DNA of 64,000 bases from Escherichia phage ukendt. The notes below the pieces were generated by a model, which was not told the DNA's origin, ran no database searches, and saw only the letters and a program-made list of their open reading frames with translations. Position 1 is the stretch's first letter; each line of letters opens with the position of its first letter. This document shows, piece by piece, positions 24,543 through 61,828 of this stretch. Both the position numbers and the translations under genes were made by a program. Location of the stretch: sequence record NC_052661.1. One strand, given 5' to 3'.

Positions 24543-24560
24543 GGGGCCGAAGCCCCTTGA
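24543..24560 (-). terminator. hairpin GGGGC-CGAA-GCCCC (identical copies at 36631 and 42797)
   Basis: palindromic stem-loop followed by T-run in minus sense. Confidence 0.5.
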
Positions 24561-24565
24561 GTGGT

Positions 24566-25366
24566 TTATTTGTTTAAATGGTCTTCAACCATTTTGATAA
24601 AGCCTTCATCACTGAAGACTGTTCCTGCTTTCTCTCGGTAGACAAGCACTCCACGTTCTTCGTAGAGAGTTTGTTCTACAAAATTCAAACCTGGGTTAAC
24701 TACAACCATCTTAACCCCAATATTCAGGGCAGGGAAGAGTTCCCAGTTGAAGTTGATTACTTGGTTAGAGCAGCCTACAACGATAACCATATCTTGTGAT
24801 GTTAGTTGATCCAGTTTGTGATACATGTCTGTGTAGAGCGGTGCATTCTCACCAAAAAACACCACATTAGGCTTCACATATTTGTAATCGTCTACATCAA
24901 TAGCTGCGTAACCCACATCTTTGATAATTTTGTTATCAACAACAACTTCTGGCAAGAAACCATGAACGTGCAATATTTCTTCTCTATCGATTCCAGCGCG
25001 TTCTAATAGATCGTCAACGTTAGTAGTGATGTTAATAATCCTTTCTGCACCGTATTTTTCGAACCATTCTCCAATCTGAAGATGTGCTGGATTCGGGTCA
25101 ACTTTCTCTAATTCCACGCGACGTTTATTGTAGAAGTCGTGAGTTTTACGGTAGAGGTTATATCCTTCCACATCTAAGCCACCCATAGCATCAGGAATAC
25201 CCTGTTCTTGCTGATAACCGTCACGGAAGTTGAAAATGTCACAGACTTCTGTCAAATCGTATTCATCCCATAATGCCTTTCCAGAATCTGTTTCTGTGCG
25301 AAATGTTTGGATTCCGCTGTCAGCACTTAGTCCCGCACCACTAATAAAATATACACGTCTTGGCAT
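24566..25366 (-). CDS. Sir2-like NAD-dependent deacylase/ADP-ribosyltransferase family protein
   Basis: sirtuin motifs GAGLSADSGIQTFR, ITTNVDDLLERAG, HVHG, KPNVVFFGE; no Cys4 zinc module. Confidence 0.65.
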   Translation of the reverse strand: MPRRVYFISGAGLSADSGIQTFRTETDSGKALWDEYDLTEVCDIFNFRDGYQQEQGIPDAMGGLDVEGYNLYRKTHDFYNKRRVELEKVDPNPAHLQIGEWFEKYGAERIINITTNVDDLLERAGIDREEILHVHGFLPEVVVDNKIIKDVGYAAIDVDDYKYVKPNVVFFGENAPLYTDMYHKLDQLTSQDMVIVVGCSNQVINFNWELFPALNIGVKMVVVNPGLNFVEQTLYEERGVLVYREKAGTVFSDEGFIKMVEDHLNK

Positions 25367-25839
25367 TATTCGTCCTCCTCAAATGGATCATAAGAATCAT
25401 ATTCGTAAGTATCATCTTCTGAAAATTCTACTTCAAAATAAATATCAAACTCTGCAAATAGACAGAGGATGTTAGACATGCTATAATAATTATCGTAGGC
25501 AGATTCAGCTTCATAATAAACATAAAGCAAATGGTTAGCCTTATCATCTTCCAAATATTTCCCGTCTGCATAAGCATAATCCGCATATGCTTTACCTGCA
25601 TCTTCTACAAAGGAACGATCAAGCAGAGTAGGAAAGGGTTTCTCTTTTTCTTTTAGTTTGCTCACCAACCAATGTGCAATCTCACTCCAGTCTGCATCCA
25701 TTCCACTGAAACAACTGGCACCTTCACCAAATTCTGCTTCTCCTAAGTCCCCTTTAATAGTAACTACAGTAGAGCTATTGTAACCGCAATCTTCACAGTC
25801 TGAATAACTATTGTGGACATTAATTTCTACTTGAAACAT
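25366..25839 (-). CDS. hypothetical acidic protein (157 aa)
   Basis: ORF track. Confidence 0.5.
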   Translation of the reverse strand: MFQVEINVHNSYSDCEDCGYNSSTVVTIKGDLGEAEFGEGASCFSGMDADWSEIAHWLVSKLKEKEKPFPTLLDRSFVEDAGKAYADYAYADGKYLEDDKANHLLYVYYEAESAYDNYYSMSNILCLFAEFDIYFEVEFSEDDTYEYDSYDPFEEDE

Positions 25840-25896
25840 ATTCCCTCCTATAAAGAAAAGCCCCCTGAAACAGGAGGCTTTGTTCAGATGTTGGCA

Positions 25897-26550
25897 CTAT
25901 ACCAGACTTTGTAGGTATTTGTCAAGGGCTTCTTGATCACCTTGGCAAACATAGCAACGGAAGTCTTGAGACGAAGGTTGTTTATTTTCATCCCAATCCC
26001 AATAAACATTACCTTTATAACGTGAGCCAGGAAACTCAAAAGAGGCTGTATGTGTAATGTATCCTGGGCCACCAGTGAAATCACAGAATGAGAATTGAGG
26101 GTATGCCGCCTTTACTGCCTCAATAAACCAAGCTTTACGATCTAATGCTTCATTGATGCTATATGCATGTCTCTCCATTTCTTCCCAAGTTTTCCAGACA
26201 CTTCTCTCATCAGGAGAAAAGACAAGCCATTCTGGAAGGTAGAGAGTGTCATAGTAATCATCATATTCGATCTCGGAGGCGCACGAAGCTGACTCCTCCA
26301 GTTTTGAGTAATCAAAAGCCGAATATACCCACCAACCATCTTCCAGTAAGGCTTTGATAGGGACGAAGCCTTTATCAACATATTGATCGAATTGTTTGAC
26401 ACGGTGGCTTGTGCAGTCTTCAAACTCACATTCTAAACGATAGGCACCTTTTCGACGAGCCTCAAGACCGTGTGTACTGAAAATAACAACACTTCCTTCA
26501 CCATCGTTACGATCTACTTGATAAGCAACTACTGGTTTTGAATTTGACAT
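25897..26550 (-). CDS. hypothetical protein (217 aa)
   Basis: ORF track. Confidence 0.5.
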   Translation of the reverse strand: MSNSKPVVAYQVDRNDGEGSVVIFSTHGLEARRKGAYRLECEFEDCTSHRVKQFDQYVDKGFVPIKALLEDGWWVYSAFDYSKLEESASCASEIEYDDYYDTLYLPEWLVFSPDERSVWKTWEEMERHAYSINEALDRKAWFIEAVKAAYPQFSFCDFTGGPGYITHTASFEFPGSRYKGNVYWDWDENKQPSSQDFRCYVCQGDQEALDKYLQSLV

Positions 26551-27233
26551 TATTTCTCCTTATCTAGAAGATTGTTAGACAAAAACACGGCACGAGCAAA
26601 ACCACGTGCGGTTAGGGATCTAAGTTGTTTTGTTTTTGCACTAGCTCCACCTAAGCTTTTCCAACCCCAGAAGCAGCCTATATGATCTACTGGTTTCTTC
26701 ACTGGTTGAACAAAACCATTGCCGTGCCAAATACAAGTTTTCTTTGTATACCCATCACGGGTAGGCATTTTAGGATGAAAGCTCCCTTCCTCTTCAAACA
26801 AATACCCACCATACTCATAAGGATCAAAGTAAAAATCGGGTTTACGCCATAAGGTTGAAAGTTTACCTACTGGGTTCTCAATCATCCAAGGAACATTATA
26901 TTTGTTACCCAAAGCTTCCACTACACGAATATTAGCTAAAGCTTCATCCAATTCCTCTGTGCTACGTTCGTGTTTGCTACCACTACCTGCTAACATAGTG
27001 CAAGGTGGAAATCCAAAAATAATATCGGGTTTAGGTATCCCATGATCTTCAGGGTTGAATGTAGAATCTATCCAAGCATTCACATAGGTTATGTTTGGGT
27101 GCTCCATCCTAACCTCGTATTTACCGTGATCCCCTTCATCAGCGTTTACACAAAAACACTTGTGACCTGCTTCGGCATAACGTAACACCATGATCCCAGA
27201 TCCGTCAAACATAGACAAAACTGTTTTACTCAT
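26550..27233 (-). CDS. DNA cytosine-C5 methyltransferase-like protein (short, atypical)
   Basis: motif I FDGSG, motif IV GFPPCT (PCQ-like), motif VI ENPVG; start placed at MSKTV after RBS ggagggg. Confidence 0.4.
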   Translation of the reverse strand: MSKTVLSMFDGSGIMVLRYAEAGHKCFCVNADEGDHGKYEVRMEHPNITYVNAWIDSTFNPEDHGIPKPDIIFGFPPCTMLAGSGSKHERSTEELDEALANIRVVEALGNKYNVPWMIENPVGKLSTLWRKPDFYFDPYEYGGYLFEEEGSFHPKMPTRDGYTKKTCIWHGNGFVQPVKKPVDHIGCFWGWKSLGGASAKTKQLRSLTARGFARAVFLSNNLLDKEK

Positions 27234-27639
27234 TACCCCTCCATTCAAGACAAGCCATAACTTTACGCCAATCACTTTCTGTAAGAAAAATCTCGTTTGC
27301 TTTCTTCCACAAATCTAAATCGTGAAGGGTTGGAATACGATATGTTAGTTCACAGAATCTATGCTCTTCTTCTGTAATATAACCAAAATGCAGAGCCACA
27401 TCGTGAAACCAACACCAACCATGCATCTCTCGAACAACATGGTCATGCTGAGACATTGTTTTATGCCGTAAACCTAACCAACAAGGAACAGATACTTTAG
27501 TAGTCTTTAATCTGTGATCAACAATATTAGAGTATTCAATAATAGCTGTCAGTTTCAATCGTGCTTTTTCTAAATCCTCGTGGGTCACTTTGAAATAACT
27601 TTCTGAAAGATATCCACACATATTAATAACCTCCTTCAA
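27226..27639 (-). CDS. hypothetical protein (137 aa)
   Basis: ORF track. Confidence 0.45.
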   Translation of the reverse strand: MKEVINMCGYLSESYFKVTHEDLEKARLKLTAIIEYSNIVDHRLKTTKVSVPCWLGLRHKTMSQHDHVVREMHGWCWFHDVALHFGYITEEEHRFCELTYRIPTLHDLDLWKKANEIFLTESDWRKVMACLEWRGNE

Positions 27640-28564
27640 AAGGCTTAACTACATGTTGATTAGCTTTAAAACGTTCAACATAGTCGTTTTCACCCATGTT
27701 TTCATATAGCTTAGTAACAACATAAAAGTTTTCCCAAGCATATTCCCTAAACCAACCACTAGTGATGGATGTGCAGACTTTAGATAAAGCCATTATAAAA
27801 CTTTGCTTAGGGGTTGGACCTCCGATCTCTCCACCGAAAGGAATTTGTGAACGTTCCAAAGCCAAAACACACGCTTCTTCATAAACACCTAACAGGCGCA
27901 CATGTTTTGGTTGAGCAAAAAACTTTTCTTTGCTGGTCATAACTTCACTTCCATCCTTCATATAAGATTTATATGCTGGAGCATCCATTACTGCGATTGC
28001 TTCATGAATAGAGTCATGATCATAAACATACGGAACCTCATCACCTTTAAAGAAGTCTTTACTTCTCACGTTTAAGTTTGGATGAGAGTAAGTGTATGTT
28101 TCTTTCTCACGCAACTCATAAATACTCTTAAGATTTTCTGGGATCTTTGCGCCTAGTGATCGCATGAAATGAATATCTTTCATAGTTTTAAAGAAGTGAG
28201 GACTATCCTTTTTAAAACGATGACTCATTTTAAGAAGGTAGAGCACATCTAAAGGAGCAACAACGTGTCCAGCGTAAGTTCGACGAATATCATCAGAGTC
28301 TTCACAATAACTAATCAAAGCTTCTGTGCTATCTCCTTGAGAAGCAATATCGTATTCCAAGTGTGCACCAGCTATCATTTTGACATGGCCCTTGTTCCCT
28401 TTACGCTCTACAAGTTCAACAAACTCATCTTGAGAGAACATTTTTGATAATTCTTCCCACTCTTGTTCTGTACAGAGATAATCTAAATCTACACAAGGGC
28501 GATACAAGTCTTTTCCCATGTCCATAGCATGAATTTGTAATGCACGGCTACCAATTAACACCAT
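27623..28564 (-). CDS. hypothetical protein with possible Pol-beta-type nucleotidyltransferase signature
   Basis: N-terminal IGSRAL...VDLDYL resembles the hG[GS]..Dh[DE]h minimal NTase motif. Confidence 0.35.
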   Translation of the reverse strand: MVLIGSRALQIHAMDMGKDLYRPCVDLDYLCTEQEWEELSKMFSQDEFVELVERKGNKGHVKMIAGAHLEYDIASQGDSTEALISYCEDSDDIRRTYAGHVVAPLDVLYLLKMSHRFKKDSPHFFKTMKDIHFMRSLGAKIPENLKSIYELREKETYTYSHPNLNVRSKDFFKGDEVPYVYDHDSIHEAIAVMDAPAYKSYMKDGSEVMTSKEKFFAQPKHVRLLGVYEEACVLALERSQIPFGGEIGGPTPKQSFIMALSKVCTSITSGWFREYAWENFYVVTKLYENMGENDYVERFKANQHVVKPFEGGY

Positions 28565-28624
28565 AATATTTCTCCTCTATTGGTTGATAGGTTAAGTTTA
28601 TCAAGCTTCCAGATTTCTGTCAAT

Positions 28625-28644
28625 AAAAAACCCGCCGAAGCGGG
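28625..28644 (-). terminator. rho-independent terminator CCCGC-CGAA-GCGGG
   Basis: stem-loop followed by T6 in minus sense. Confidence 0.6.
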
Positions 28645-28654
28645 TTATTATTTA

Positions 28655-28927
28655 CTAACACATTGAGGAAGAAGAGATCCAAACACCTCTTGTGGTTAAA
28701 CCATTTTCATCCAACTCTACACCATAATCTTCACAAATGAAATCAATATAGTGATCTGCGGCTGGCGTTCCTGTAGGGTAATAAGTTTCTCCGTTACCGT
28801 AGTCACCTATCCAAGCTTGTTCCTGAAACTGTTCACAAAGTTCTTCAATCTCCTTACGAAACTTTCTTTGTGCTTGTTCCATCTCTTTAACTTTCTTTTT
28901 TATCAGCAGTTCGCCTTCAGACTCCAC
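28655..28927 (-). CDS. hypothetical small acidic protein, C-terminal W-x-SSS-x-C
   Basis: ORF track; C-terminus GVWISSSSMC paralogous to 28937 and 29442. Confidence 0.5.
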   Translation of the reverse strand: MESEGELLIKKKVKEMEQAQRKFRKEIEELCEQFQEQAWIGDYGNGETYYPTGTPAADHYIDFICEDYGVELDENGLTTRGVWISSSSMC

Positions 28928-28936
28928 AATCTCTCC

Positions 28937-29197
28937 TTAACAGCTACTACTGTGCCAAACGCCTTGAGAATTAACGACGAAACCATCATCACCTTCACCA
29001 TAACAAGAAGAGGATTGCCAATCTTCAAAACAGATTGCGTCATTTTCTAAACTAAGACCAAAACCAGCATCTTCAGCTTCTTTTGTAAGTTCGTCCACTA
29101 AAGCCATAATAGCTTGGGCTTTTTCAGTTAATTCTTCAACATTACGATCACTCATTAGTATTTCTCCTCTGGTTGGAAAACTGAACGACAAGCCCAC
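28937..29197 (-). CDS. hypothetical small acidic protein, C-terminal GVWHSSSC
   Basis: ORF track; paralog of 28655. Confidence 0.5.
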   Translation of the reverse strand: MGLSFSFPTRGEILMSDRNVEELTEKAQAIMALVDELTKEAEDAGFGLSLENDAICFEDWQSSSCYGEGDDGFVVNSQGVWHSSSC

Positions 29198-29469
29198 ATA
29201 CTAGCTTCTTTTAAATGTTTAATAGCACAACGGATTTGATCAATACGTTCGTATGCAAGATCTAATTCTTTTTCTGTGCCGTCAAAAGACCCATGATATG
29301 CTTCACAATACTCTTCCTCTAAAGCTTTGAAGATTAAACCTAAACGCTCTTCTGCATCTTTAATAGCGTTAACCTTGCCAATCTTATCGTCAGTATGCGC
29401 CTTATAACCTTTGATATCTTCGATTCCCACTTTACCTCCTATTAACAACTTAAAGAAGATGGGTGCCAA
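29155..29469 (-). CDS. hypothetical protein (104 aa)
   Basis: ORF track. Confidence 0.45.
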   Translation of the reverse strand: MAPIFFKLLIGGKVGIEDIKGYKAHTDDKIGKVNAIKDAEERLGLIFKALEEEYCEAYHGSFDGTEKELDLAYERIDQIRCAIKHLKEASMWACRSVFQPEEKY

Positions 29470-29639
29470 TTTGTTCCAGTATTCTCATTTTCATCTTCTG
29501 GATCATAATAGCCACCCATCCCATATTCAGGGGAGAAACGGAAACCTTTACCAGTCTCATCTGCTAACTGCTCTGCTTCCGCTAAAGCCTCATAAGCTGC
29601 TTTTACGGCTTCTTCTACTGTTTTAAACTTGGTCGTCAT
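29442..29639 (-). CDS. hypothetical small acidic protein, C-terminal WHPSSLSC
   Basis: ORF track; third member of the SSC-tail family. Confidence 0.45.
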   Translation of the reverse strand: MTTKFKTVEEAVKAAYEALAEAEQLADETGKGFRFSPEYGMGGYYDPEDENENTGTNWHPSSLSC

Positions 29640-29913
29640 AAAATTTCTCCTCTCCTAAAGACATGTTGACATGAAATGCACGATATGTAAATTCGTTGTC
29701 CGTTGTGTTTGAATAAAACTCAAATTGAACAACACCGTCTTGAGAAGACAGATACATGCCAATTTGAACTGTTCCTTCTGGTACCAGGTAAGCATACTCT
29801 GGACGTAGTGTTACATTGTAAAAATAAAGTTCCCCAACACCCATTTCATCCCAAGCTTCCCAAGCGGTAACGAAGTTACTTTCAAAACTTGTTACTGATC
29901 TGAACTCTGCCAT
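29623..29913 (-). CDS. hypothetical protein (96 aa)
   Basis: ORF track. Confidence 0.5.
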   Translation of the reverse strand: MAEFRSVTSFESNFVTAWEAWDEMGVGELYFYNVTLRPEYAYLVPEGTVQIGMYLSSQDGVVQFEFYSNTTDNEFTYRAFHVNMSLGEEKFYDDQV

Positions 29914-30404
29914 AAAACCTCCTCAATCTTGTAGTTTGACTCCATCTCCAACACATTTCCACGAACGTCTCTCCGAAGAAAGGCATAAGCTTTATTAGGT
30001 ATTGTAGACTCATATTTAACCATATCTGGCACAGCAAAAGATACTACTACTCCTGCTGGGCTTCTGTCAAGAGCCTTATTAATATTTCTAAGGATATCGT
30101 TAGCCAAGATTTCTGCCAATTCTCCAAGAACGGTTTCGGTTATATCTTTATATCCCATTAAGTATTTGTTGATATCTTTCATCTCTGTATTGTTCAGAGT
30201 ATAATCCAAAGGATAGAAATTCAAAGCGGAGTCACTTTTATGTGTCCACATGAAATGCACCCGATCCGAGCAGAATCGTAACCCTCTTTGAAGAATATCT
30301 TCTACAACAGGCAGAATTTCTTTTGTCACATCATTAACCATGTTGTAATCTAAGATTTCTGCCAAGTTTGTTCTTTGTTCACCACGTTTACGTTTAGGAA
30401 TCAC
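29892..30404 (-). CDS. hypothetical protein (170 aa)
   Basis: ORF track. Confidence 0.5.
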   Translation of the reverse strand: MIPKRKRGEQRTNLAEILDYNMVNDVTKEILPVVEDILQRGLRFCSDRVHFMWTHKSDSALNFYPLDYTLNNTEMKDINKYLMGYKDITETVLGELAEILANDILRNINKALDRSPAGVVVSFAVPDMVKYESTIPNKAYAFLRRDVRGNVLEMESNYKIEEVLWQSSDQ

Positions 30405-30975
30405 TTGTTATTGCCCTCATTACCAAAGGTCGTAGAAAATCGTAAATCTCTTGTTTTGTTTTCCCACGAATGTTTAAACAAGGAACATTATTGGCTTTAG
30501 CTATCTTCCAAGCCGTAGCTGTTCCGCCTTTTGCATCCCCATGTTTATCAGTATTAGCACAAGCCAACAAGAAACACGATGGAGCAGGATTCTCCAAATC
30601 TCTGCCTAACACCTGATGCACATTACGTTGGTGCAATTTTCTAGCACCCTGCTTAAGCTTTTCATAAGCTGGGTGAACATCTTTGATCCATTGCACAGAG
30701 ATAGCATAGTTCATTGTATCTGGTTTTGCAAGAACAATAACATCACCTGGAATCTGATTACCTTTGAAATTTTCCCAAGGAACATAAATCTCCTTGTTAG
30801 TAGGATTTTCAGACTCTTGGACACCTGTTTCAAAAGCAGAATCACTACCCTCTGCCTTCCCAGACCTTAATTTAAACCCAAGGTTTGAAAGCCATTTCCC
30901 TATGCCTACCATCAAAGCCCACTCTTCTTCAGATATATCTCTACTTCCAACTCCCGTATAGAACAGTTCTGCCAT
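30394..30975 (-). CDS. DprA/Smf-like (SLOG-type) Rossmann-fold protein
   Basis: GVGSRDIS ... SGKAEGSDSAFETG resembles the DprA GSR / SG.A.G.D signature; start at MAELFY after RBS gaggtga. Confidence 0.35.
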   Translation of the reverse strand: MAELFYTGVGSRDISEEEWALMVGIGKWLSNLGFKLRSGKAEGSDSAFETGVQESENPTNKEIYVPWENFKGNQIPGDVIVLAKPDTMNYAISVQWIKDVHPAYEKLKQGARKLHQRNVHQVLGRDLENPAPSCFLLACANTDKHGDAKGGTATAWKIAKANNVPCLNIRGKTKQEIYDFLRPLVMRAITSDS

Positions 30976-30982
30976 AATCACC

Positions 30983-31291
30983 TCAACAAGTAATTTCAAA
31001 AGGTGTATAGGGTTCCGTATTTCTCATGATCCAAGGACTGCTAGGATTGCTCGGATCATAAGGACCAAAAGGTTTTATGGTAGGTTGTGTTTCTTTCTTC
31101 TGAATCTCTTCAAAAATACGACGAAGTTCAGAATATTCTTGATCCACCATAAGATTCGGTGCATCCGATTCTACAGTTTGCAGGTTATCTTCCTTAAAAA
31201 CAATCTCACGAACAAGATTAACATCTTCTGTTTCTAAGATAACTTCTTTACGGATATTACCTACACTTTGAATAATTGTAATCTTATACAT
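30983..31291 (-). CDS. hypothetical protein (102 aa)
   Basis: ORF track. Confidence 0.5.
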   Translation of the reverse strand: MYKITIIQSVGNIRKEVILETEDVNLVREIVFKEDNLQTVESDAPNLMVDQEYSELRRIFEEIQKKETQPTIKPFGPYDPSNPSSPWIMRNTEPYTPFEITC

Positions 31292-32034
31292 TAATCCTCC
31301 TCAAGAGTTGAATAAAATTGAAGACCACCGTCCATATCGAAATAAGCAAATGTTAAGTTATTATTGAACACAGATCCAGTATCCATATAAACACGATTCG
31401 CATTGATAATAGGTGTTTTTACATAAGAGTGTCCATGGAACACATAGTCCACACCCATCACAACAGGAAGTTTCATTCCCTCTTTAGCACAGTCCACCAT
31501 ATCTCTGTCCCACATAAGTGCTTCAGCAAAACGGTTTTCCTGTGTTTTTGTCATCTTCAAAGTGTATTCTGGAATATCTGTTACAGGGAGATATTCCAAA
31601 GAAGATGGATACCCACCATGAATAAACGCAAGTTTCATGCCTCTGTAGTTAACAATGAGAACAACAGGTAAATCTTCTGTCATCATTGCTAAGGCTGTAG
31701 CTCCTTCTTCACCACATTCTTCAAGGACTGTATATCCTCCATTTTGATACCAACACTCGAAGTAGCTACGATCTCCTTCCAGCATACCTTTAATCATCAT
31801 GTCTTCATGATTTCCACGAATAGCGTAGCGATTGTGTTTACGAGTAAATTCTAAAACACAACGAAAGTTTTGCTTTCCACGGTCAGTAAGATCTCCTAAA
31901 GATACAACTACATCTGTATCTCGGATACCTAACTTTGCCTTTCCTTTTTCATACAAATTATAACAACCGTGTAGATCTCCAATTATAAAAAGATCTTGAT
32001 CGCTTTTAACAGTAATTTCTCTATGTATGATCAC
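31291..32034 (-). CDS. Ser/Thr protein phosphatase (calcineurin-like metallophosphatase)
   Basis: GDLHG, GDLTDRG, GNHE motifs. Confidence 0.8.
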   Translation of the reverse strand: MIIHREITVKSDQDLFIIGDLHGCYNLYEKGKAKLGIRDTDVVVSLGDLTDRGKQNFRCVLEFTRKHNRYAIRGNHEDMMIKGMLEGDRSYFECWYQNGGYTVLEECGEEGATALAMMTEDLPVVLIVNYRGMKLAFIHGGYPSSLEYLPVTDIPEYTLKMTKTQENRFAEALMWDRDMVDCAKEGMKLPVVMGVDYVFHGHSYVKTPIINANRVYMDTGSVFNNNLTFAYFDMDGGLQFYSTLEED

Positions 32035-32360: not shown

Positions 32361-32370
32361 TCCTTCCTCC

Positions 32371-34602: not shown

Positions 34603-34618
34603 TGCCCCCGAAGGGGCA
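34603..34618 (-). terminator. rho-independent terminator TGCCCC-CGAA-GGGGCA
   Basis: stem-loop followed by TTTCTT in minus sense, downstream of the HslV-like gene. Confidence 0.6.
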
Positions 34619-34623
34619 GTTTG

Positions 34624-35316: not shown

Positions 35317-35819
35317 TATTCTTCCTCCTCTGTTAATGTTTTAAGAACCGCTTTCCCGCCATTCACATATTTGCAGATGTATTCTATCGCACGTAGTGTC
35401 TCTTTGTCAACAAAAATTTGATCAGACGTTGCGAGCGGGTTATTAAGAAGATCACTACAATCACGAACAAGCAGTGCTTTCTTATTAAACAAATTACTTA
35501 AGAACAGTAACTTCGCCTCTTCTTCTGTTATGTGCAGAAGGCTAGGATCGGAGCCAGCTATTCCTATTATACAATCAAACAAGCTTTCTTTACTATCAGA
35601 AAGTTCTTGAAAATGGTTTAAAAGCCAATCTTCTCCTAGACACCAACATTTAAACATTTCCAGCTTATCTCGGAGGGTCATATTCTCTAAAGTAAGAGCA
35701 ATCTCTTTTTCAATATGGTTTACACAAATTTGACGAAATTCGTTAGGTTTTACGAGTCCCGTTTGATAGCACTCATCTATACCGCTTCTTCCGATAGCTA
35801 TTGTTGCTACACCCATCAA
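35316..35819 (-). CDS. hypothetical protein (167 aa)
   Basis: ORF track. Confidence 0.5.
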   Translation of the reverse strand: MMGVATIAIGRSGIDECYQTGLVKPNEFRQICVNHIEKEIALTLENMTLRDKLEMFKCWCLGEDWLLNHFQELSDSKESLFDCIIGIAGSDPSLLHITEEEAKLLFLSNLFNKKALLVRDCSDLLNNPLATSDQIFVDKETLRAIEYICKYVNGGKAVLKTLTEEEE

Positions 35820-35851
35820 TCCTCCTTATAAATGGCTTCCCTGCCACGTTA

Positions 35852-36610
35852 TTAAATAAACACTTCAGTAATCAGTTTAGACAAACGTCCACGTTTATTA
35901 TCGTCCGTTGTCAGTTCAACATATCCAATAAAATCTACAATTGGCTCACGAACACCTTCTTCATTCTCTGGATATAAAAGTTCCAAAATTTGATGCAGAC
36001 CATTGCTACGTTTTTTAATTGCATATGTCTGGCGAACATCGCCTAATACAATAACATGCGTATTAATACCTGCACGTTCAATAAGAAGTTTAAGTGTTTC
36101 TGTTGACATAAGTTGTGCTTCGTCAATAATGACGATTGTATTATCCAGGGTAGCCCCCAACAAATAGTTAGGAATATTCAATTCGATCTTACCTGATCCA
36201 ATATCGTTTTCCAATTTGTTAGCTGTCATGAATTGCTGGAAAATACGTTTTGTAGATTCATAGTGTGCTGCTAGTTTATCTGTTTTATCCCCAGACAAGA
36301 AACCAATCTGGTCATCTCCGACTTCAGTAGGGTTCTTGATAAAAAGTAGTTTACGGAAGTCTCCTGAACGAAGCATCTGCAAAGCTTTCCATAAAGCAAC
36401 AGAGGTTTTACCAGTCCCTGCCGGAGCATTTACAACAGTCAGATCATTCCAAATCATGCTTTGAACAATCTTATTTTGGTCCCCTTCAGGCATAAATTCA
36501 TCTAAACGGTAATCGTCATTACCTACCGCTTTTGCTGCATAACGGCTTTCAATCTTTGCTGAATTAGCCAGTTTCTGCCGTTGTGTTTTAGCTGCGGTTT
36601 TATTTCCCAT
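35852..36610 (-). CDS. phoH: PhoH-like ATPase
   Basis: Walker A APAGTGKTS and PhoH-like layout; start placed at MGNK after RBS aaggag because the upstream ATG lies inside a hairpin. Confidence 0.75.
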   Translation of the reverse strand: MGNKTAAKTQRQKLANSAKIESRYAAKAVGNDDYRLDEFMPEGDQNKIVQSMIWNDLTVVNAPAGTGKTSVALWKALQMLRSGDFRKLLFIKNPTEVGDDQIGFLSGDKTDKLAAHYESTKRIFQQFMTANKLENDIGSGKIELNIPNYLLGATLDNTIVIIDEAQLMSTETLKLLIERAGINTHVIVLGDVRQTYAIKKRSNGLHQILELLYPENEEGVREPIVDFIGYVELTTDDNKRGRLSKLITEVFI

Positions 36611-36630
36611 AGTAGCACTCCTTTTAGAAG

Positions 36631-36644
36631 GGGCCGAAGCCCCT
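36631..36644 (-). terminator. hairpin GGGGC-CGAA-GCCCC after the lysozyme gene
   Basis: identical to hairpins at 24543 and 42797. Confidence 0.45.
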
Positions 36645-36647
36645 TTA

Positions 36648-37148
36648 TTAGTTGTAAGCATCTAAAGTTCCAGAAGTCAGAACTTTAATTACTCGTTCAG
36701 CACGGTTTGGCGTCTGGCTATACCATCGGCTTTTACGCATGTTTTTACCTGCTTGAGTATAATATGCATTGCTGATTAAAGTCAAGCTATTTTTAAACCC
36801 TTCAGCACCTTTTAACCCCAACTGGAAAACCATGTTGATTATTCCCAATTTACGAGTATCACTCACCTTATCATAGATTGGTGATAAGATAGCACTGTTT
36901 TTTATGTCTCTCTTCACTTTTGCAACATCGTCAGCAAAGATTTGACGGGCTTCTTTTTCTGTGATAACTCCATTGGTCTTACGACCAAGGAGATTATCTA
37001 AGATTTGAATAGCCTTTGCTTTATCTTTTATTTTAGTCAGAAGGTGTCCTATGCCGACTGTCCAATAACCAAGATGATCTTGGTAAACAGTAAGCTTCAG
37101 TCCTTCATCGACTCGTAGCATATCAAACTCATCTACTACTTTAGCCAT
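36648..37148 (-). CDS. T4-type lysozyme (GH24 endolysin)
   Basis: MLRVDEGLKLTVYQDHLGYWTVGIGHLL matches the T4 lysozyme catalytic region. Confidence 0.9.
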   Translation of the reverse strand: MAKVVDEFDMLRVDEGLKLTVYQDHLGYWTVGIGHLLTKIKDKAKAIQILDNLLGRKTNGVITEKEARQIFADDVAKVKRDIKNSAILSPIYDKVSDTRKLGIINMVFQLGLKGAEGFKNSLTLISNAYYTQAGKNMRKSRWYSQTPNRAERVIKVLTSGTLDAYN

Positions 37149-37155
37149 TTACTTC

Positions 37156-37302
37156 CTATTCGTCGTCTCCTACTCCGTGATCCAACTCATTAAACAACAG
37201 ATGTTCTGGAGAAGTTTCACGTTTTGGTTTCGTTTTCTTTATGTTGGACTTCAGCTCATTTGCCAAAGCACGAGAAAAGATCTTACGTTTCTGTTTACTT
37301 TT
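37156..37302 (-). CDS. hypothetical small basic protein (48 aa)
   Basis: ATG after RBS ggagtaacaatt; not in ORF track. Confidence 0.35.
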   Translation of the reverse strand, partial: KSKQKRKIFSRALANELKSNIKKTKPKRETSPEHLLFNELDHGVGDDE

Positions 37303-37310
37303 CATAATTG

Positions 37311-37571
37311 TTACTCCGCAATTTGAGCCATGAGATCACGCAGTTCGGTAAAACCGCCTACGTATGTTACCTCCCCGTTCACTTCAGACAGAATTTGTGG
37401 AAATGTGCGTGGAGGAACTCCGGTAAGATCAACAACTGTTTTAGTCATTGATTCTAAATCGTAGTCTTGGTCAAGACTTAAATATTCAAACTGTTTATTG
37501 CGCATGGTTAATAGTTGTTTTGACATTTCGCAAAATTGACAGTTAGGTTTACCAAAAATTACAAATTCCAT
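37311..37571 (-). CDS. glutaredoxin/NrdH-like redoxin
   Basis: CQFC active-site motif in a small thioredoxin-fold protein adjacent to rml and nrd genes. Confidence 0.75.
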   Translation of the reverse strand: MEFVIFGKPNCQFCEMSKQLLTMRNKQFEYLSLDQDYDLESMTKTVVDLTGVPPRTFPQILSEVNGEVTYVGGFTELRDLMAQIAE

Positions 37572-38413
37572 TACCTCTCCTTATTAAGTAATACTGCTAA
37601 AGACCGTTCAATACCTTTATTTAAATCTGATTTTGTAAGATAGTGACTGGTTACTAATTGTGACTTCACCGGACGTGCTGCTGGAGCATTATAGGTTGAA
37701 GCTGATACCGCCGATATCTTAACAGGTTCTGGCATCTGTGTCAAGATCTTTTCCGCAAACTCCGCCCAAGAAATAAGATGGCTTCCTGCAAAATGGTAAG
37801 TCTTAACAGACCTTGACCAACCTGTTTTTAATACTTCAAAAATAGCTTCTGCTAAATCTGGAGCATATGTTGGACAAGAGAACTGATCAGCAACAATAAT
37901 AAAATCACGTTGTCCATCATTATAGCGAGACAACATGGTTTTTAGAAAGTTATTTCCAAATTCGCTATATACCGAGGCTGTTCGAATAATATATGCATTT
38001 GGGTTAACTCCTCGCACCATTTTTTCACCAAGTTCTTTCGTATACCCATAATTGTTTATTGGGTTAGGTGTAGTATCTTCAAAAATAGGATGAGAATAAT
38101 TAAAAATATAGTCTGTAGAAATATGCACAAAATCAATTTTAAGTTTACTGCACACTGCTGCAATGTTTGCAGGGCCGTAGGCATTAACAGCCAAAGCAGT
38201 AGCAAAATCATGTTCTGCTTTATCTACAGCCGTATAAGCAGCGCAATTAATAACACCATCTACATAATCTTCAATAATAGCGTTGCGCACGGCTTCAAAA
38301 TTTGTAATATCTACACGTTCTTTAGGATAAATTAAAGATACGTTTGAAGGAGCCACTTTACGTAAAGCTTGTCCCAGTTGTCCATTACCACCCAATACCA
38401 GATATGTTAGCAT
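37571..38413 (-). CDS. rmlD: dTDP-4-dehydrorhamnose reductase
   Basis: N-terminal GGNGQLG Rossmann motif, RmlD-like length, last gene of the rml operon. Confidence 0.8.
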   Translation of the reverse strand: MLTYLVLGGNGQLGQALRKVAPSNVSLIYPKERVDITNFEAVRNAIIEDYVDGVINCAAYTAVDKAEHDFATALAVNAYGPANIAAVCSKLKIDFVHISTDYIFNYSHPIFEDTTPNPINNYGYTKELGEKMVRGVNPNAYIIRTASVYSEFGNNFLKTMLSRYNDGQRDFIIVADQFSCPTYAPDLAEAIFEVLKTGWSRSVKTYHFAGSHLISWAEFAEKILTQMPEPVKISAVSASTYNAPAARPVKSQLVTSHYLTKSDLNKGIERSLAVLLNKER

Positions 38414-38973
38414 ACACCCTCACTACGTAGCTGTTGAAAAGACTTAGCCATTGCATCTTTTGTTGATAAGATAGGTTTAAAATCTTCGTCAAAAATCATA
38501 TCGAAGCCCCAATCAATCCCTATATCAGGATCATCCCAACGTAAACTTTGCTCGCTGGAAGGGTCGTATGGAGTTGTGCATTTGTATTCGAAGATAGCAT
38601 CCATACTCAAGACTATAAAGCCATGTGCCAAACCAGGTGGAAGCCAGAACTGTGTATGGTGTCGTGCACGAAGAACAACACCGTCCCAAGCACCGTAAGT
38701 TGGACTGTCTTTACGTAAGTCTACAGCGAAATCCAATACTTCACCACTTACACAACGAACAAGCTTGCCTTGTGGATTATTTGTTTGGAAGTGCATTCCT
38801 CGCAAAACACCGAAGTTTGATTTAGACATGTTATCTTGAACGAAAGTTTGTTTACCAATAATATCTTCGTATTTTTGTTCATTGTATGTTTCTAAAAAGA
38901 AACCACGATCATCTTTATAAACGTCTGGTTTGATAATTACCGCACCTTCGATTTTTGTTTTTTCTACTTTCAT
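38407..38973 (-). CDS. rmlC: dTDP-4-dehydrorhamnose 3,5-epimerase
   Basis: [10 protein letters not shown] and RGMHFQ motifs; start at MKVEK with ATGA overlap to rmlA stop. Confidence 0.85.
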
Positions 38974-39848
38974 TTTCTCTCCGCTAATTTGAGTAGGTAT
39001 TGCCCGTACTCTGTTTTCTTCAGTGAGTTTCCATGGTACACCAAAGTCTCTAAAGAAATCCACCCTTTTTTGAAAGCAATTTCTTCCAGGCACGCAATCT
39101 TCAATCCTTGGCAGTTCTCAATAGTCTGCACGAATTGACCAGCTTCCATCAGACTGGCGTGTGTTCCTGTGTCAAGCCAAGTAAATCCTCGTCCGAGAAC
39201 TTCTACTTGTAACTTCCTGTCTTCGAGGTAGCTGCGATTGATATCTGTGATCTCCAGTTCTCCACGCGAGGAAGGGGTTACTTCTAGTGCGCGTTGAACA
39301 ACAGAATTATCATAGAAATACAAACCTGTGACAGCATAATCTGATTTAGGATTTTCAGGTTTCTCTTCAATAGAAATAGCTTGACGATTACTCCCAAATT
39401 CAACCACGCCGAATCGTTCAGGATCTTTCACCAAATACCCAAAGATACAAGCTCCGCCCCAAACATCTACCATCTCACTGGCATTAATCAGTAGTTTACC
39501 AAAGCTTTGTCCGAAGAATAGGTTGTCACCTAAAATAAGAGCAACAGAGTCTTCTCCGATAAAATCTTTACCGATGATGAAAGCCTCCGCAAGACCTCGT
39601 GGCTCGGATTGGATTGCGTAAGTGAGTTTTATCCCAAACATAGACCCATCTCCGAGAAGATACTTAAAGTCTTCCTGATCGCCTGGTGTGGTGATGATTA
39701 AGATATCTTTAATGTCAGCCAACATCAATACCGATAAAGGGTAGTAGATCATGGGTTTGTCATACACAGGGAGCAATTGCTTGCTCACACTGCGTGTTAC
39801 CGGATGAAGGCGGGTTCCACTTCCTCCCGCCAAAATAATACCTTTCAT
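38970..39848 (-). CDS. rmlA: glucose-1-phosphate thymidylyltransferase
   Basis: [19 protein letters not shown]-terminal motif. Confidence 0.9.
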
Positions 39849-39856
39849 AACCCTCC

Positions 39857-40849
39857 TTAAATCTTCTCACTCCACCATTGAGGGTTGTTTAAGTACCATT
39901 CAATCGTTGAGTAGAGATCTTGTTCAAATGTAGAGTTTGCACTCCAACCCAGTTCAGACTCTATTTTAGAAGGATTGATTTCATAACGCAAGTCATGTCC
40001 TTTACGATCTTCAACAAAAGTTATCAAGTTGGAAGAAGGGTAGGTTCCTGCTTCTGGATGTACAGCATCCATGTAGTCACAAACCATATAGATGATCTCC
40101 ATATTGGTTTTGGGATTACGTGTTCCAATATTATACGTTTGACCTGGTTCTCCACCTGTTGCCACTTGAAGAATAGCTCGCGCATGATCCTCCACAAAAA
40201 GCCAGTCTCGCACCTGATCGCCTTTACCATACACTGGAATCTTTTTATTCGTCAAGATACTTGTGATGATTTTTGGGATCAGCTTTTCTGGATGTTGATA
40301 AGGTCCAAAGTTATTGGAGCAGTTGGTTATCACAACAGGTAAGTCGTAGGTACGGTGCCAAGCTTTCACAAGATGGTCAGATGCTGCCTTAGACGCACTG
40401 TACGGGCTTGAAGGGGCATAAGCTGTCTCTTCGGTAAAAGGAACGCCAGAGTCTGCCATATCGCCGTACACTTCGTCTGTGGAGACGTGTACGAACATCT
40501 TCAGTTTATTCTTTGGGAGGAGCCTTGCAGCTTCCAATAAATTGTATGTACCAATAATATTGGAGTCGATGAAAGCTCGTGGATTCTTGATAGAATTATC
40601 CACATGACTCTCTGCCGCTAAGTGAATGATGAAATCGGGATTGCACTCTACTACTAAACTTTTGACCTGGGCTTCGTTTGCCAAATCTGTTATACTTAGT
40701 TTAGCGTGAGTGATATCGCCTACATTCTTAATGTCTGCTGCATAGCTCATCTTATCAACGACAAAAACTTCGTTATTGGGATCTTGACAAAGAGAGCGCA
40801 CCACGGCGCTCCCAATAAAACCAAGACCACCTGTTACCAGATAGCGCAT
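39857..40849 (-). CDS. rmlB: dTDP-glucose 4,6-dehydratase
   Basis: [13 protein letters not shown] Rossmann motif and SDR catalytic region. Confidence 0.9.
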
Positions 40850-40858
40850 ACGTTCTCC

Positions 40859-41185
40859 TTACCAGACGTTTTGTGATACTAACGTTTCAGTTTCAATATT
40901 ATACTTATTAAGTAGTTCAAAATAGACCTCATTTGCTTTTTTATTTAAGCTTGTGAGGTCTATGGCACAAGCACCACAACCGCTACACAGCTTGATACCG
41001 AAGACACAATCTTCAGGATCTGCATCATACCACGGGGAAATGTTTTCCAAGCCCAAACCTTCGCAGAGAAACCAATTAAAGTCCCCATCGAACTGGTCTT
41101 CGACTTGTGGATCGTCTCCAAATATTTCTTTCCATTTATCATATGGTGCACCCTGTAACATACGCCATTCGATATCAATACCCAT
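40859..41185 (-). CDS. hypothetical Cys-containing protein (108 aa)
   Basis: ORF track. Confidence 0.5.
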   Translation of the reverse strand: MGIDIEWRMLQGAPYDKWKEIFGDDPQVEDQFDGDFNWFLCEGLGLENISPWYDADPEDCVFGIKLCSGCGACAIDLTSLNKKANEVYFELLNKYNIETETLVSQNVW

Positions 41186-41339
41186 TTTTCATCTCCTCCT
41201 CTTCTTGAGCAGCTTTAATAATTGCTTCATAAATATCGTAAGCAATGCCTCCACAACATCTAGCTTCGAAAGCTATTGCTTCTGCAATGTGATCTGTTAA
41301 TTCTCGTGGAATGCGAACATACTCTTTTTCACTCTCCAT
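41175..41339 (-). CDS. hypothetical small protein (54 aa)
   Basis: ATG after RBS ggaggtagaag; stop overlaps next start; not in ORF track. Confidence 0.4.
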   Translation of the reverse strand: MESEKEYVRIPRELTDHIAEAIAFEARCCGGIAYDIYEAIIKAAQEEEEMKNGY

Positions 41340-41481
41340 CTTCTACCTCCAACCCTTCTTTTTCAAAGATTACTACTCGTCCTTCACCATGACAATTCAG
41401 GCAAGGAAATGTTACCATAATCTCCACTTCCATTTGTCCAGTCCCACCACACACAGGACAAAAAATAAGTTTTTCAGCCAT
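41329..41481 (-). CDS. hypothetical zinc-ribbon protein (50 aa)
   Basis: CPVCGG...CLNCHG; RBS aaggaggaata; not in ORF track. Confidence 0.45.
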   Translation of the reverse strand: MAEKLIFCPVCGGTGQMEVEIMVTFPCLNCHGEGRVVIFEKEGLEVEDGE

Positions 41482-41690
41482 TATTCCTCCTTAATTATTT
41501 CAAACTTGGCAACACCATTTACAATAATATGACCACAAGACATAACTCCTAACCAAGGATCGCCGTTTTTCTTCAGGCGTTTACCGAATACATCACAAAA
41601 ACCATTCTTCATTTCGGAGGCTTCATAAGAAGCCCCTTTGTCAAAAACGTCTTTGAATGTGTCGATTATACCAACACATCTCAGAATCAT
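41481..41690 (-). CDS. hypothetical protein (69 aa)
   Basis: ORF track. Confidence 0.45.
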   Translation of the reverse strand: MILRCVGIIDTFKDVFDKGASYEASEMKNGFCDVFGKRLKKNGDPWLGVMSCGHIIVNGVAKFEIIKEE

Positions 41691-42775
41691 TAGAAGTCAA
41701 GCTCCTCATCATCAGAAAGATCTTTGTTAGCTGAATTCAACTTGTAATTAGTTAACTGAATCTCTTGGGCTGCTGACTGAATCAAATCAGGATTCAACCA
41801 TTTTTCCATCCAAGCTAAAGGACTATGTTTAGGTGCTTTAAACTTGGCTTTCATTTTCAATCGACGATAAATAGGAGCAGCATTGAAATAAACCCACTGT
41901 TTAGACAATTCGGCGTTAAGACCTACAATAAAACGACCTTCACTAAACAGGTAGTCACACCACTGTTCCTCTTGTTCAACAACAGTGTCGAGGATCAAAG
42001 TCAACTCTTCAATATTGTCTTCGTAAATTTTACGCCAAATTGGGTCATGCATCAATGCATCAATTACAGCATAATCCATCTTAACATGCAAGATTTCATC
42101 TAGCATAATTTTCTGGATCAGTTTACAAGCCCCAACAAACAGTTGTTGTTCTGCCATAGCAAAAGTAGCAGAGAAGGAAGATATGAACTGAATACCTTCT
42201 AATCCAATCAGGGCTACCATCCCTTTAAGAATCAGCAATCGAAGTTCATCGTTAGCTTCAATCAATCCTAGAGCATACTTATGACCAGCTTCTTCCAACT
42301 GACCCATGATATCAGCAATGATACCCATACGATTGAAAATTTTATCATTAATCATAATCTGATTGATGACTTCAATTGGATCTGGAGTACATTGACGGAT
42401 TATTTCAGAATATGTTAACGCATGGAGAACTTCCATTTCACTCTGCTTCATCATCATAGCACAGGCTTCATTGTTACTCAAGAATGGAGAGAACAAAGTG
42501 ATGATTGATTTTGCAAGAGAATCATTTTCCCATTGGAACGATAAGTTTTTAATCATAACATCATAGTTGTTTTTAGAACAAGCTACGAAATCTTTACGTG
42601 TCTGATCCAGATTGACTTCATTCTCATCCCAATCTTGTGCTTTTTGAAGTTTGTAGAGTTTATGCATTTCTGGATAAGTTACGTTAACAGAATCAAAAAT
42701 CCCTAATTGTTCTCCTAAAAATACTGGATATTTTCCTGTTTTGTAAACTTCATTGTGTAAATTAATTGCTGCCAT
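41690..42775 (-). CDS. nrdB: ribonucleotide reductase class Ia beta subunit
   Basis: R2-type diiron/tyrosyl region and length. Confidence 0.9.
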   Translation of the reverse strand: MAAINLHNEVYKTGKYPVFLGEQLGIFDSVNVTYPEMHKLYKLQKAQDWDENEVNLDQTRKDFVACSKNNYDVMIKNLSFQWENDSLAKSIITLFSPFLSNNEACAMMMKQSEMEVLHALTYSEIIRQCTPDPIEVINQIMINDKIFNRMGIIADIMGQLEEAGHKYALGLIEANDELRLLILKGMVALIGLEGIQFISSFSATFAMAEQQLFVGACKLIQKIMLDEILHVKMDYAVIDALMHDPIWRKIYEDNIEELTLILDTVVEQEEQWCDYLFSEGRFIVGLNAELSKQWVYFNAAPIYRRLKMKAKFKAPKHSPLAWMEKWLNPDLIQSAAQEIQLTNYKLNSANKDLSDDEELDF

Positions 42776-42796
42776 TTAAAATTCTCCTCAATAAAA

Positions 42797-42810
42797 AGGG
42801 GCCGAAGCCC
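42797..42810 (-). terminator. hairpin GGGGC-CGAA-GCCCC between nrdA and nrdB
   Basis: identical stem-loop followed by T5 in minus sense; possible attenuator. Confidence 0.5.
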
Positions 42811-61823: not shown

Positions 61824-61828
61824 CCAAC

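Follow-up and report, generated by a model that had tools for sequence, protein, structure and literature searches.

Hairpins of the form (X)nCUUCGG(Y)n are common in phage intergenic regions and are abundant in T4, according to the passage of PMC8948821 that cites Tuerk 1988. The same passage describes one CUUCGG hairpin that stabilizes the T4 gene 32 mRNA. Rho-independent terminators with UUCG and GAAA tetraloops are described in the part of PMC3972237 that cites d'Aubenton Carafa et al. 1990. In phiKZ, one conserved terminator hairpin motif recurs at experimentally mapped 3' ends (PMC10914365). The window analyzed here, a stretch of 64,000 nt, contains three identical hairpins of a kind that is already known; they are the standard operon punctuation of large lytic phages, a feature that is real but ordinary. 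Hairpins of the CUUCGG class have unusual thermal stability and stop reverse transcriptase. UUCG and GNRA tetraloops reportedly interchange at homologous rRNA hairpins, an observation attributed to Woese et al. in 1990. The hairpins of the window and their relatives resemble that case in carrying UUCG or GCAA/GAAA/GUAA, by lineage, at one stem position, and differ from it in being phage mRNA punctuation rather than structural RNA.

The core GGGG-CUUCGG-CCCC fits the Tuerk 1988-type formula (X)2-8 CUUCGG (Y)2-8, in which X pairs with Y, with an A-U extension to 6-7 bp, and all three copies are sited as in that class, being intercistronic with UUCG in the mRNA sense. The copies thus share with the T4 hairpins, as treated in the relevant parts of PMC8948821 and PMC3972237, the motif, the intercistronic site in a large virulent coliphage, the sense polarity, and the proposed roles in RNA 3'-end formation, as a barrier, and in mRNA stabilization. 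T4 belongs to the Tevenvirinae, whereas the phage studied here belongs to the Stephanstirmvirinae and its hairpins are predicted from sequence. A GC-rich stem with a tetraloop and a U-rich tail is likewise found in the intrinsic (Rho-independent) terminators of E. coli and its phages that have UUCG or GNRA loops, and ARNold predicts copies 1 and 3 in a RefSeq relative. Unlike those terminators, the copies are intra-operon, 19-22 nt before the next start codon, and must therefore be leaky; copy 2 has no U tract. In phiKZ, as here, one hairpin sequence recurs at intergenic sites of a large phage genome, many of them in phiKZ, and is interpreted as sharing an action at the RNA level, but the sequence and host are different, and the 3' ends that are predicted here at three copies were mapped there by ONT-cappable-seq (PMC10914365).

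Three copies at three gene junctions

The 14-mer GGGGCCGAAGCCCC has exact plus-strand matches at 24543-24556, 36630-36643, and 42798-42811 in a two-strand pattern search of the window. The three identical 14-bp stem-loops of the preliminary description are thus present, with the first position exact and the second and third each off by one. No further copies with two or fewer mismatches occur in the window. Because the mean number of exact matches in 100 dinucleotide-preserving shuffles was 0.00, three copies are far beyond chance. On the minus (coding) strand, the 14-mer reads GGGGC-UUCG-GCCCC, a stem closed by a C(UUCG)G tetraloop, and flanking A/U pairs lengthen the hairpins as follows.

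24541..24558, minus strand: copy 1, AAGGGGC-UUCG-GCCCCUU, between the Sir2-like gene (stop 24568-24566) and a 90-aa ORF; tail UCUUAUU, Shine-Dalgarno (SD) AGGAG at 24533-24529, ATG at 24522.
36628..36645, minus strand: copy 2, AAGGGGC-UUCG-GCCCCUU, between lysozyme (stop 36650-36648) and PhoH; tail CUAAAAGGAG with a poor U tract, SD AAGGAG at 36623-36618, ATG at 36610.
42797..42812, minus strand: copy 3, AGGGGC-UUCG-GCCCCU, between nrdA (stop 42822-42820) and nrdB; tail UUUUAUU, SD GAGGAG at 42789-42784, ATG at 42775.

Each copy sits in a spacer of 36-44 nt, where the stop codon is followed by the hairpin, then a U-rich tail, the SD, and the ATG. The window, from a phAPEC8-like E. coli phage, belongs to Phapecoctavirus and is 98.5% identical to NC_052654. 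In the annotated genome at that identity, the gene order is Sir2, hairpin, small ORF; lysozyme, hairpin, PhoH; and nrdA, hairpin, nrdB, in agreement with the gene context first given for the copies. The genome-wide count that had been proposed as a check was run on this close relative: the complete NC_052654.1 (151,671 bp) contains exactly three copies of the 14-mer, at the same three junctions. An Rfam 15 scan of the window at the gathering threshold returned 11 tRNAs only, with no match at the hairpins.

The stem, with five G-C pairs, one or two A-U pairs, and a tetraloop, is within the limits for a Rho-independent terminator (GC-rich, at least 5 bp, loop of 3-8 nt). With 5 bp, the core stem is near the lower limit of length for efficient intrinsic terminators. 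The tails differ when judged by a U tract of at least about 5 U in 8 directly after the stem: copy 3 (UUUUUAUU) has one, copy 1 (UUUCUUAU) has one moderately, and copy 2 (UUCUAAAA) does not. The d'Aubenton-Carafa-type terminator score is +27.3 for copy 3 and +13.8 for copy 1, whose hairpin is present in the minimum free energy fold, and -11.5 for copy 2, whose tail UUCUAAAAGG is below terminator grade. A simple terminator scan of the minus strand also called copies 1 and 3. The public record already lists two of the three copies as terminators: in RefSeq NC_048196 (Schickermooser), the orthologs of copies 1 and 3 are ARNold terminators, copy 3 being labeled 'putative transcriptional terminator, ARNOLD, -13.90', and the ortholog of copy 2 has no terminator annotation. 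The proposal of a common terminator or attenuator module therefore broadly holds for the GC-rich sense hairpins followed by U-rich tails, of which copies 1 and 3 are ARNold-annotated, but what is common is the hairpin alone, since the tails range from strong (copy 3) through moderate (copy 1) to sub-grade (copy 2). With copy 2 lacking the U tract, the three copies may not share one mechanism. A literature search found no transcriptome or Term-seq study of Phapecoctavirus or phi92-like phages, and termination at the copies is a prediction.

The model energy is about -9.6 kcal/mol when the core is taken by itself and -13 to -15 kcal/mol when its surroundings are included. Fold z-scores against shuffles are an unremarkable -0.5 to -1.7 in contexts of 56-61 nt, which is expected and uninformative because the element is so short (14 nt). 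Sequestration of the SD, or translational occlusion by the hairpin, was considered and rejected, as local folds leave the SD essentially free at the copies.

Loop polarity and other hairpins in the window

The reverse complement of the 14-mer is GGGGCTTCGGCCCC, so that symmetry is limited to the stem; the plus-strand loop is CGAA, and the minus (coding) strand reads UUCG there. Because all matches in the two-strand search are on the plus strand, the three copies are oriented alike with respect to their genes. The hairpin had been described as palindromic and strand-symmetric. This is wrong, as the loop is asymmetric and its orientation tracks transcription; in the hairpin census, UUCG reads on the coding strand in 6/6 UUCG hairpins of the window. 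The description is corrected to a hairpin with a sense-strand UUCG loop. In the 151.7-kb relative NC_052654.1, all 10 perfect UUCG hairpins are sense and none is antisense. The difference in loop energy under the Turner model is small (sense -9.6 vs antisense -8.7 kcal/mol). Other hairpins of the window are the following.

23903..23920, plus strand: the 18-mer AACCCGCTTCGGCGGGTT of the 28629 hairpin on the opposite genome strand, sense, ending plus-strand genes; score +26.0; annotated terminator in NC_048196.
24223..24246, no strand assigned: 10-bp bidirectional terminator where plus and minus transcription units converge; GC skew flips.
28629..28646, minus strand: AACCCGC-UUCG-GCGGGUU, a UUCG hairpin sister to the copies, whose strong U tract leads into a TTGACA promoter; fold z = -3.6, score +29.6.
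34603..34618, minus strand: UGCCCC-UUCG-GGGGCA after an HslV-like gene, with a weak U tract; score -15.6.
48917..48935, minus strand: AGGGAGC-UUAUU-GCUCCCU terminator and TTGACA promoter; score +31.5.

The hairpin at 28629..28646 is kept in all relatives examined and is the terminator-promoter boundary of a transcription unit. Its 18-mer is found on both genome strands of the window and is sense to the local genes each time, which indicates that polarity tracks transcription. The stem at 34603..34618 covaries in relatives. In phiWec179, phi92, muut, and FKP3, the site orthologous to 48917..48935 has a GGGGC-tetraloop-GCCCC hairpin.

Conservation in relatives and recurrence in unrelated viruses

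The GGGGC/GCCCC stem is held at the same sites across two genera and metagenomic relatives, with different loops. At the lysozyme/PhoH site, the stem is identical in more than eight lineages and the loop is UUCG, GCAA, GAAA, or GUAA. The loop is UUCG, UACG, or GAAA at the Sir2 site and UUCG, UUCA, GAAA, or a U.G-closed UUCG at the nrdA site. By our own tally, UNCG and GNRA make up about 30 of 35 site-by-genome loops, vs 12 of the 256 possible tetraloops. A fixed stem with loops that are nearly all UNCG or GNRA indicates selection on the sense-strand RNA hairpin. The junctions are a clear natural case of UNCG and GNRA loops replacing each other on an unchanged stem, which could inform terminator design. 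Both loop families are stable in the sense reading only.

The hairpin also bears on gene annotation. The PhoH start is annotated after the hairpin in phi92 and Schickermooser, and some records start the gene upstream, placing the hairpin inside the ORF; the hairpin supports the shorter start, at 36610.

The exact 14-mer was found in at least 120 viral contigs in a scan of IMG/VR, with GC contents of 33-68% and unrelated flanks. Chance alone could, as a rough guess, yield hundreds of 14-mer matches in a collection of this size, so the count itself was not taken as evidence of enrichment, and the context and orientation of the matches were used instead. Among the matches listed, an SD and start codon lie within 30 nt downstream in 63/125 in the UUCG orientation vs 2/125 in the other orientation. 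Judged by these contexts, the use of the 14-mer by unrelated phages is convergent.

Action of the hairpins

The structure, polarity, context, and conservation pattern of the copies, together with their public terminator annotation, make it probable that they are conserved, convergently favored C(UUCG)G intercistronic hairpins that serve as leaky terminators or stabilizers; actual termination, its efficiency, and any mRNA stabilization are predicted from these features. The site of action would be the mRNA, in the minus-strand sense, and not the DNA. A 5-7 bp G/C stem with an extra-stable UUCG loop would form right after the stop codon, with a U-rich tail leading into the next SD. Copies 3 (nrdA/nrdB) and 1 (after Sir2), with tails that are U-rich enough, may act as leaky Rho-independent terminators (attenuators), at which a fraction of polymerases would stop. 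The remainder would read through, since a new promoter would not fit ahead of the next start codon. A hairpin at a 3' end or internal processing boundary would also shield the upstream message from 3'-to-5' exonucleases, and copy 2 (lysozyme/PhoH) probably works mainly in this way because of its poor U tract. The efficiency of copy 3 would have to be limited or compensated because an efficient stop would starve nrdB and many downstream genes. That this copy sets subunit stoichiometry, as first suggested, is plausible, and the hairpin points to a way in which the ratio of nrdA to nrdB mRNA may be adjusted. The nrdA-nrdB copy combines a strong U tract with no room for a promoter before nrdB. GGGGC-tetraloop-GCCCC would be a minimal, near-optimal design, its exact identity not derived from recent copying or mobility, and the hairpins would have stood at the same junctions since before Phapecoctavirus and Justusliebigvirus split.

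An unlikely alternative is that the hairpins are purely for mRNA stability or processing, with no termination of RNA polymerase at any of the three. Their role would be to stop 3' exonucleases once an endonuclease has cut, or to protect a new 5' end, so that segments of the polycistronic mRNA would differ in half-life. All three copies lie inside operons with no downstream promoter found, copy 2 and the 34603 hairpin, though lacking an adequate U tract, are as strongly conserved as the rest, and a T4 CUUCGG hairpin stabilizes the gene 32 mRNA in the account that PMC8948821 gives in its relevant passage. However, the run of U directly 3' of the stem at copies 1 and 3 is kept in every relative examined, although an exonuclease block needs none, and both ARNold and the simple scan call these two copies terminators.

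It is quite improbable that the GGGGC/GCCCC stem is the site of a phage or host RNA-binding protein (a translational repressor, antiterminator, or processing factor) that co-regulates nrdB, PhoH, and the gene after Sir2. Over two genera, the stem sequence at sites A-C does not vary and has undergone almost no compensatory change, and the SD is about 10 nt away, but purifying selection alone accounts for such invariance in a 5-bp stem that tolerates no single mismatch, and there is covariation at other sites (site E). Furthermore, the loop, the usual recognition element, switches between unrelated tetraloop families, and the same 14-mer occurs in unrelated phages of very different GC content.

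The preliminary description also considered a small mobile repeat, and a miniature mobile or copied repeat (MITE/REP-like), or short-patch gene conversion between copies, has a slighter chance still. Identical 14-20-mers do recur within genomes (GGGGCUUCGGCCCC three times here, AAAGGGGCGAAAGCCCCUUU twice in phi92), the sites of one genus tend to have the same loop type (UUCG here; GAAA in phi92 and muut), and all four loop positions differ between genera in flanks that are roughly 60-80% identical by hand count. Against this, when the copies are aligned on the hairpin, their identity ends 1-3 nt outside it and the flanks match no better than chance (10-20 of 40), terminal repeats and target duplications are absent, and phiWec179 and FKP3 have mixed loops at these sites. 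The same stem is at the same junctions in two genera, and every relative has a hairpin at the orthologous sites. The mobile-repeat proposal is thus not upheld.

An element acting at the DNA level and identically on both strands (a cruciform, or a target for recombination or homing) is scarcely credible: the nrdA-nrdB spacer is an insertion hot spot, with an HNH endonuclease gene or small ORF inserted on either side of the hairpin in relatives, but at the other two copies the five further genomes compared are free of insertion polymorphism, and strict sense loop polarity and the UNCG/GNRA pattern are meaningless for duplex DNA.

A separate and doubtful proposal is that the GGGGC-stem hairpins at three or four junctions evolve in concert. 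It is based on tetraloops that are swapped the same way at several sites (UUCG in Phapecoctavirus, GAAA in Justusliebigvirus) and on stems that are identical while the flanks diverge only about 20-40% (hand count). Concerted change, if true, would point to short-patch copying between terminator hairpins, loop inversion, or a lineage-specific factor that recognizes the stem. Inversion would turn UUCG into its reverse complement, CGAA, which a single change separates from the GNRA loop GGAA.

A repeated intercistronic hairpin

The window comes from a phAPEC8-like E. coli myovirus (Phapecoctavirus, Stephanstirmvirinae) and shares 98.5% identity with vB_EcoM-Ro121c4YLVW (NC_052654) over 10 kb. An identical hairpin is indeed used three times, as the preliminary description stated. 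The 14-mer GGGGCCGAAGCCCC occurs on the plus strand at exactly 24543-24556, 36630-36643 and 42798-42811; one of the positions first given was correct and two of the three were off by 1 base. Chance expectation is a mean of 0.00 matches (100 dinucleotide-preserving shuffles), and the window holds no further copy at up to 2 mismatches. The reverse complement, GGGGCTTCGGCCCC, is a different sequence, so the 14-mer is not the palindrome it was taken for, and a two-strand search places all three copies in a single orientation rather than in strand symmetry. The complete NC_052654 genome (151,671 bp, assembled from four pieces) contains exactly three GGGGCTTCGGCCCC, at the same three junctions. Local genes in the ORF list lie on the minus strand, and GC skew flips at ~24,000. 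The mRNA of each copy therefore reads GGGGC-UUCG-GCCCC, a 5-pair G/C stem with C(UUCG)G closure. The perfect-hairpin census of the window gives six UUCG-tetraloop hairpins.

UUCG-tetraloop hairpins in the window (perfect-hairpin census)
24541-24558, minus strand: copy 1, after the Sir2-like gene, stem lengthened by flanking A/U
36628-36645, minus strand: copy 2, between lysozyme and PhoH, stem lengthened by flanking A/U
42797-42812, minus strand: copy 3, between nrdA and nrdB, stem lengthened by flanking A/U
28629-28646, minus strand: AACCCGC-UUCG-GCGGGUU
23903-23920, plus strand: AACCCGC-UUCG-GCGGGUU, the same 18-mer as at 28629
34603-34618, minus strand: UGCCCC-UUCG-GGGGCA

The NC_052654 annotation bears out the gene context: Sir2-like gene/hairpin/small ORF, lysozyme/hairpin/PhoH and nrdA/hairpin/nrdB. 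Each spacer is 36-44 nt on the coding strand and runs in the order stop codon, 1-9 nt, hairpin, U-rich tail, Shine-Dalgarno (SD), ATG, with 19-22 nt from hairpin to ATG. The minimum-energy structure of each spacer contains the hairpin and leaves the SD free; fold z-scores do not stand out for elements this short. With its start at 36661, the longest PhoH ORF (35852-36661, minus strand) overlaps the lysozyme gene, and its translation would pass through the hairpin. This upstream start is the one used in NC_052654, which puts the hairpin inside the PhoH ORF. In phi92, Schickermooser, FKP3, muut and phiWec179, PhoH starts 3' of the hairpin, behind an AGGAG-type SD. The ATG at 36610 is taken as the probable PhoH start, favoured by its AAGGAG SD and the phi92 and Schickermooser annotations.

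The nrdA-nrdB spacer (window 42776-42819; loci L002-L007 of the comparison) is an insertion hot spot among relatives. An HNH endonuclease gene is inserted between nrdA and the hairpin in phi92. The same gene is interrupted by a stop codon in AV126 and annotated there as two hypothetical ORFs, which we read as a probable pseudogene. In phAPEC8, phiWec179, muut and FKP3, a ~110-aa ORF lies between hairpin and nrdB; the window spacer has neither insertion. These insertions are reminiscent of mobE between nrdA and nrdB of T4.

Terminator features and read-through

The proposal of a common terminator or attenuator module is broadly right, with a terminator predicted at copies 1 and 3 but not at copy 2. 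A consensus terminator scan calls copies 1 and 3 terminator-like on the minus strand and copy 2 on the opposite strand only. In NC_048196 (phage Schickermooser), copies 1 and 3 have orthologues annotated 'putative transcriptional terminator, determined by ARNOLD, -13.90', so that two of the three copies already carry terminator annotation in the public record. That record also marks the convergent terminator and the hairpins with the AACCCGC stem; the orthologues of copy 2 and the 34603 hairpin have no such annotation. The tails behind the three identical hairpins all differ (UUUUUAUU, UUUCUUAUU, UUCUAAAA).

Scores of d'Aubenton-Carafa type (used only for ranking)
Copy 3: +27
Copy 1: +14
Copy 2: -11.5
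Hairpin at 34603: -15.6
Strong-U-tract hairpins (23903, 28629, 48917, convergent terminator): +26 to +32

The sequence features of an intrinsic terminator are complete in copy 3, moderate in copy 1 and insufficient in copy 2. Copies 1 and 3 are probably leaky intrinsic terminators, which would act as attenuators within a long operon, and all three hairpins, chiefly copy 2, would also be a 3'-exonuclease barrier or processing boundary, leaving upstream and downstream mRNA segments unequally abundant. We infer termination and how efficient it would be, as well as any influence on the nrdA:nrdB ratio. A pure stability element is unlikely.

None of the three copies leaves room for a promoter between hairpin and next ATG, so the downstream genes rely on read-through. 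The arrangement differs at the AACCCGC hairpins of NC_052654: two of the three (one being window 28629) abut TTGAC(A) -35 elements, and the 48917 hairpin likewise directly abuts one. At 28595-28646 and 48890-48935 (minus strand), terminator and promoter are fused, the U tract running directly into a TTGACA -35 (UUUUAUUGACA); the fusion is kept in phi92 and other relatives.

According to PMC3972237, citing d'Aubenton Carafa 1990, UUCG and GAAA tetraloops act as rho-independent terminators. In phiKZ, a single conserved terminator hairpin motif is reused at experimentally mapped 3' ends (PMC10914365). Hairpins of the form (X)nCUUCGG(Y)n are frequent between phage genes and plentiful in T4, where one stabilises gene 32 mRNA (PMC8948821, citing Tuerk et al.). 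In sequence, location and polarity the window elements fit this CUUCGG-hairpin class. No Rfam family covers the window hairpins, and a literature search found no published transcriptome for this phage group. Hairpin structure and polarity, gene context, conservation and the annotation already in place are shown directly. The feature is real and non-random, yet ordinary and of a kind already known.

Conservation of stem and loop

Orthologous junctions were compared in phiWec179 (a divergent Phapecoctavirus), the Justusliebigvirus phages phi92, muut and Klebsiella phage FKP3, phAPEC8, AV126 and eight IMG/VR relatives found via PhoH.

Hairpins at orthologous junctions
Site A, after nrdA: stem GGGGC/GCCCC, one GGGGG/CCCCC; loops UUCG, UUCA, GAAA, U.G-closed UUCG and one CUUUGU hexaloop
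Site B, lysozyme-PhoH: stem (A)AGGGGC/GCCCCU(U), unchanged across all lineages; loops UUCG, GCAA, GAAA, GUAA
Site C, after Sir2: stem as at site B; loops UUCG, UACG, GAAA
Site D, after the DNA polymerase exonuclease subunit: GGGGC-tetraloop-GCCCC in relatives, loops UUCG, GAAA; AGGGAGC-UUAUU-GCUCCCU at 48917 in the window

The stem at 34603 covaries (UGCCCC/GGGGCA, AACCCCC/GGGGGUU, AUGCCUC/GAGGCAU, AAAAUGCCC/GGGCAUUUU). By our own tally, ~30 of 35 site-by-genome loops are UNCG or GNRA, which together account for 12 of 256 possible tetraloops and are special in the sense reading only. A pattern of this kind indicates selection for a stable RNA hairpin on the sense strand, with loop identity free among stable tetraloops. 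The comparison also shows that the GGGGC stem is old at several sites and was in use there before the two genera split. A protein-binding site is very unlikely.

At sites B and C the two genera differ in all four loop positions, as they do at site D with phiWec179 as the reference; none of the ten stem bases differs, and flank identity is roughly 60-80% (hand count). Loop type tends to agree between sites of one genus. Most simply, the loop hops under selection from one stable alternative to another; short-patch copying from copy to copy, or loop inversion, is improbable. UUCA replaces UUCG in otherwise identical hairpins of phAPEC8 (L002, 589-602) and muut (L014, 34136-34155). Such single-base variants could be mildly deleterious polymorphisms, or steps in the turnover of the loop.

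Recurrence and polarity

A small mobile repeat had also been suggested, which the surroundings do not support. When the copies are aligned at the hairpin, all three agree for just 1-3 extra bases per side, and their 40-nt flanks match at 10-20 of 40 positions, which is chance level. No terminal repeats or duplications surround them, and every relative compared has a hairpin at these sites. Despite its identical copies, a copied or mobile repeat thus has very little chance of being right.

The exact 14-mer occurs in at least 120 stretches of DNA in IMG/VR, on contigs of 33-68% GC with unrelated flanks; in a collection of this size the count itself carries no meaning, and context was used instead. 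Among the matches listed, an SD and start codon follow within 30 nt in 63 of 125 in the UUCG orientation versus 2 of 125 in the opposite one, and at least 5 T fall in the first 8 downstream bases in 55 versus 21. An A/T-rich peak ~7-9 nt upstream, also among the matches listed, fits a putative stop codon just 5' of the hairpin. This bias points to a stop-hairpin-SD-start module used convergently by many unrelated phages.

The UUCG reading follows the local gene strand in all six window hairpins. Since the AACCCGC 18-mer is found on both genome strands, sense to local genes each time, polarity tracks transcription and not DNA, and a DNA-level element is scarcely credible. NC_052654 has 41 perfect GC-rich tetraloop hairpins; ten carry a UUCG loop, all sense and none antisense. 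AACCCGCTTCGGCGGGTT occurs three times in that genome.

At 24223-24246, a perfect 10-bp hairpin (AAAGGCACCC-ACTT-GGGTGCCTTT) with T-rich tails on both strands marks the exact point where plus and minus transcription units converge and GC skew changes sign; tails and position predict a bidirectional terminator. Another, larger family of hairpins (GCGGCAATGGTGCCGC with its variants) occupies window 40-4440 (plus strand), for example at 57-74, 608-624, 1040-1057, 1793-1808, 2665-2680, 3250-3267 and 4397-4414. Its repeat module comprises an A-rich tract, TTGACA, ~16-17 nt, TAATAT/TAGAAT, ~10 nt, GTAGGGCGGCAATGGTGCCGC, AAGAGAG and ATG, and at least eight perfect copies lie at 124-134 kb of NC_052654. 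The modules resemble strong early sigma-70 promoters; transcripts made from them would open with a conserved 5' stem-loop before many small ORFs. Eleven tRNA genes (Rfam RF00005 matches) cluster at 61752-63669 (plus strand), in agreement with the NC_052654 tRNA block.
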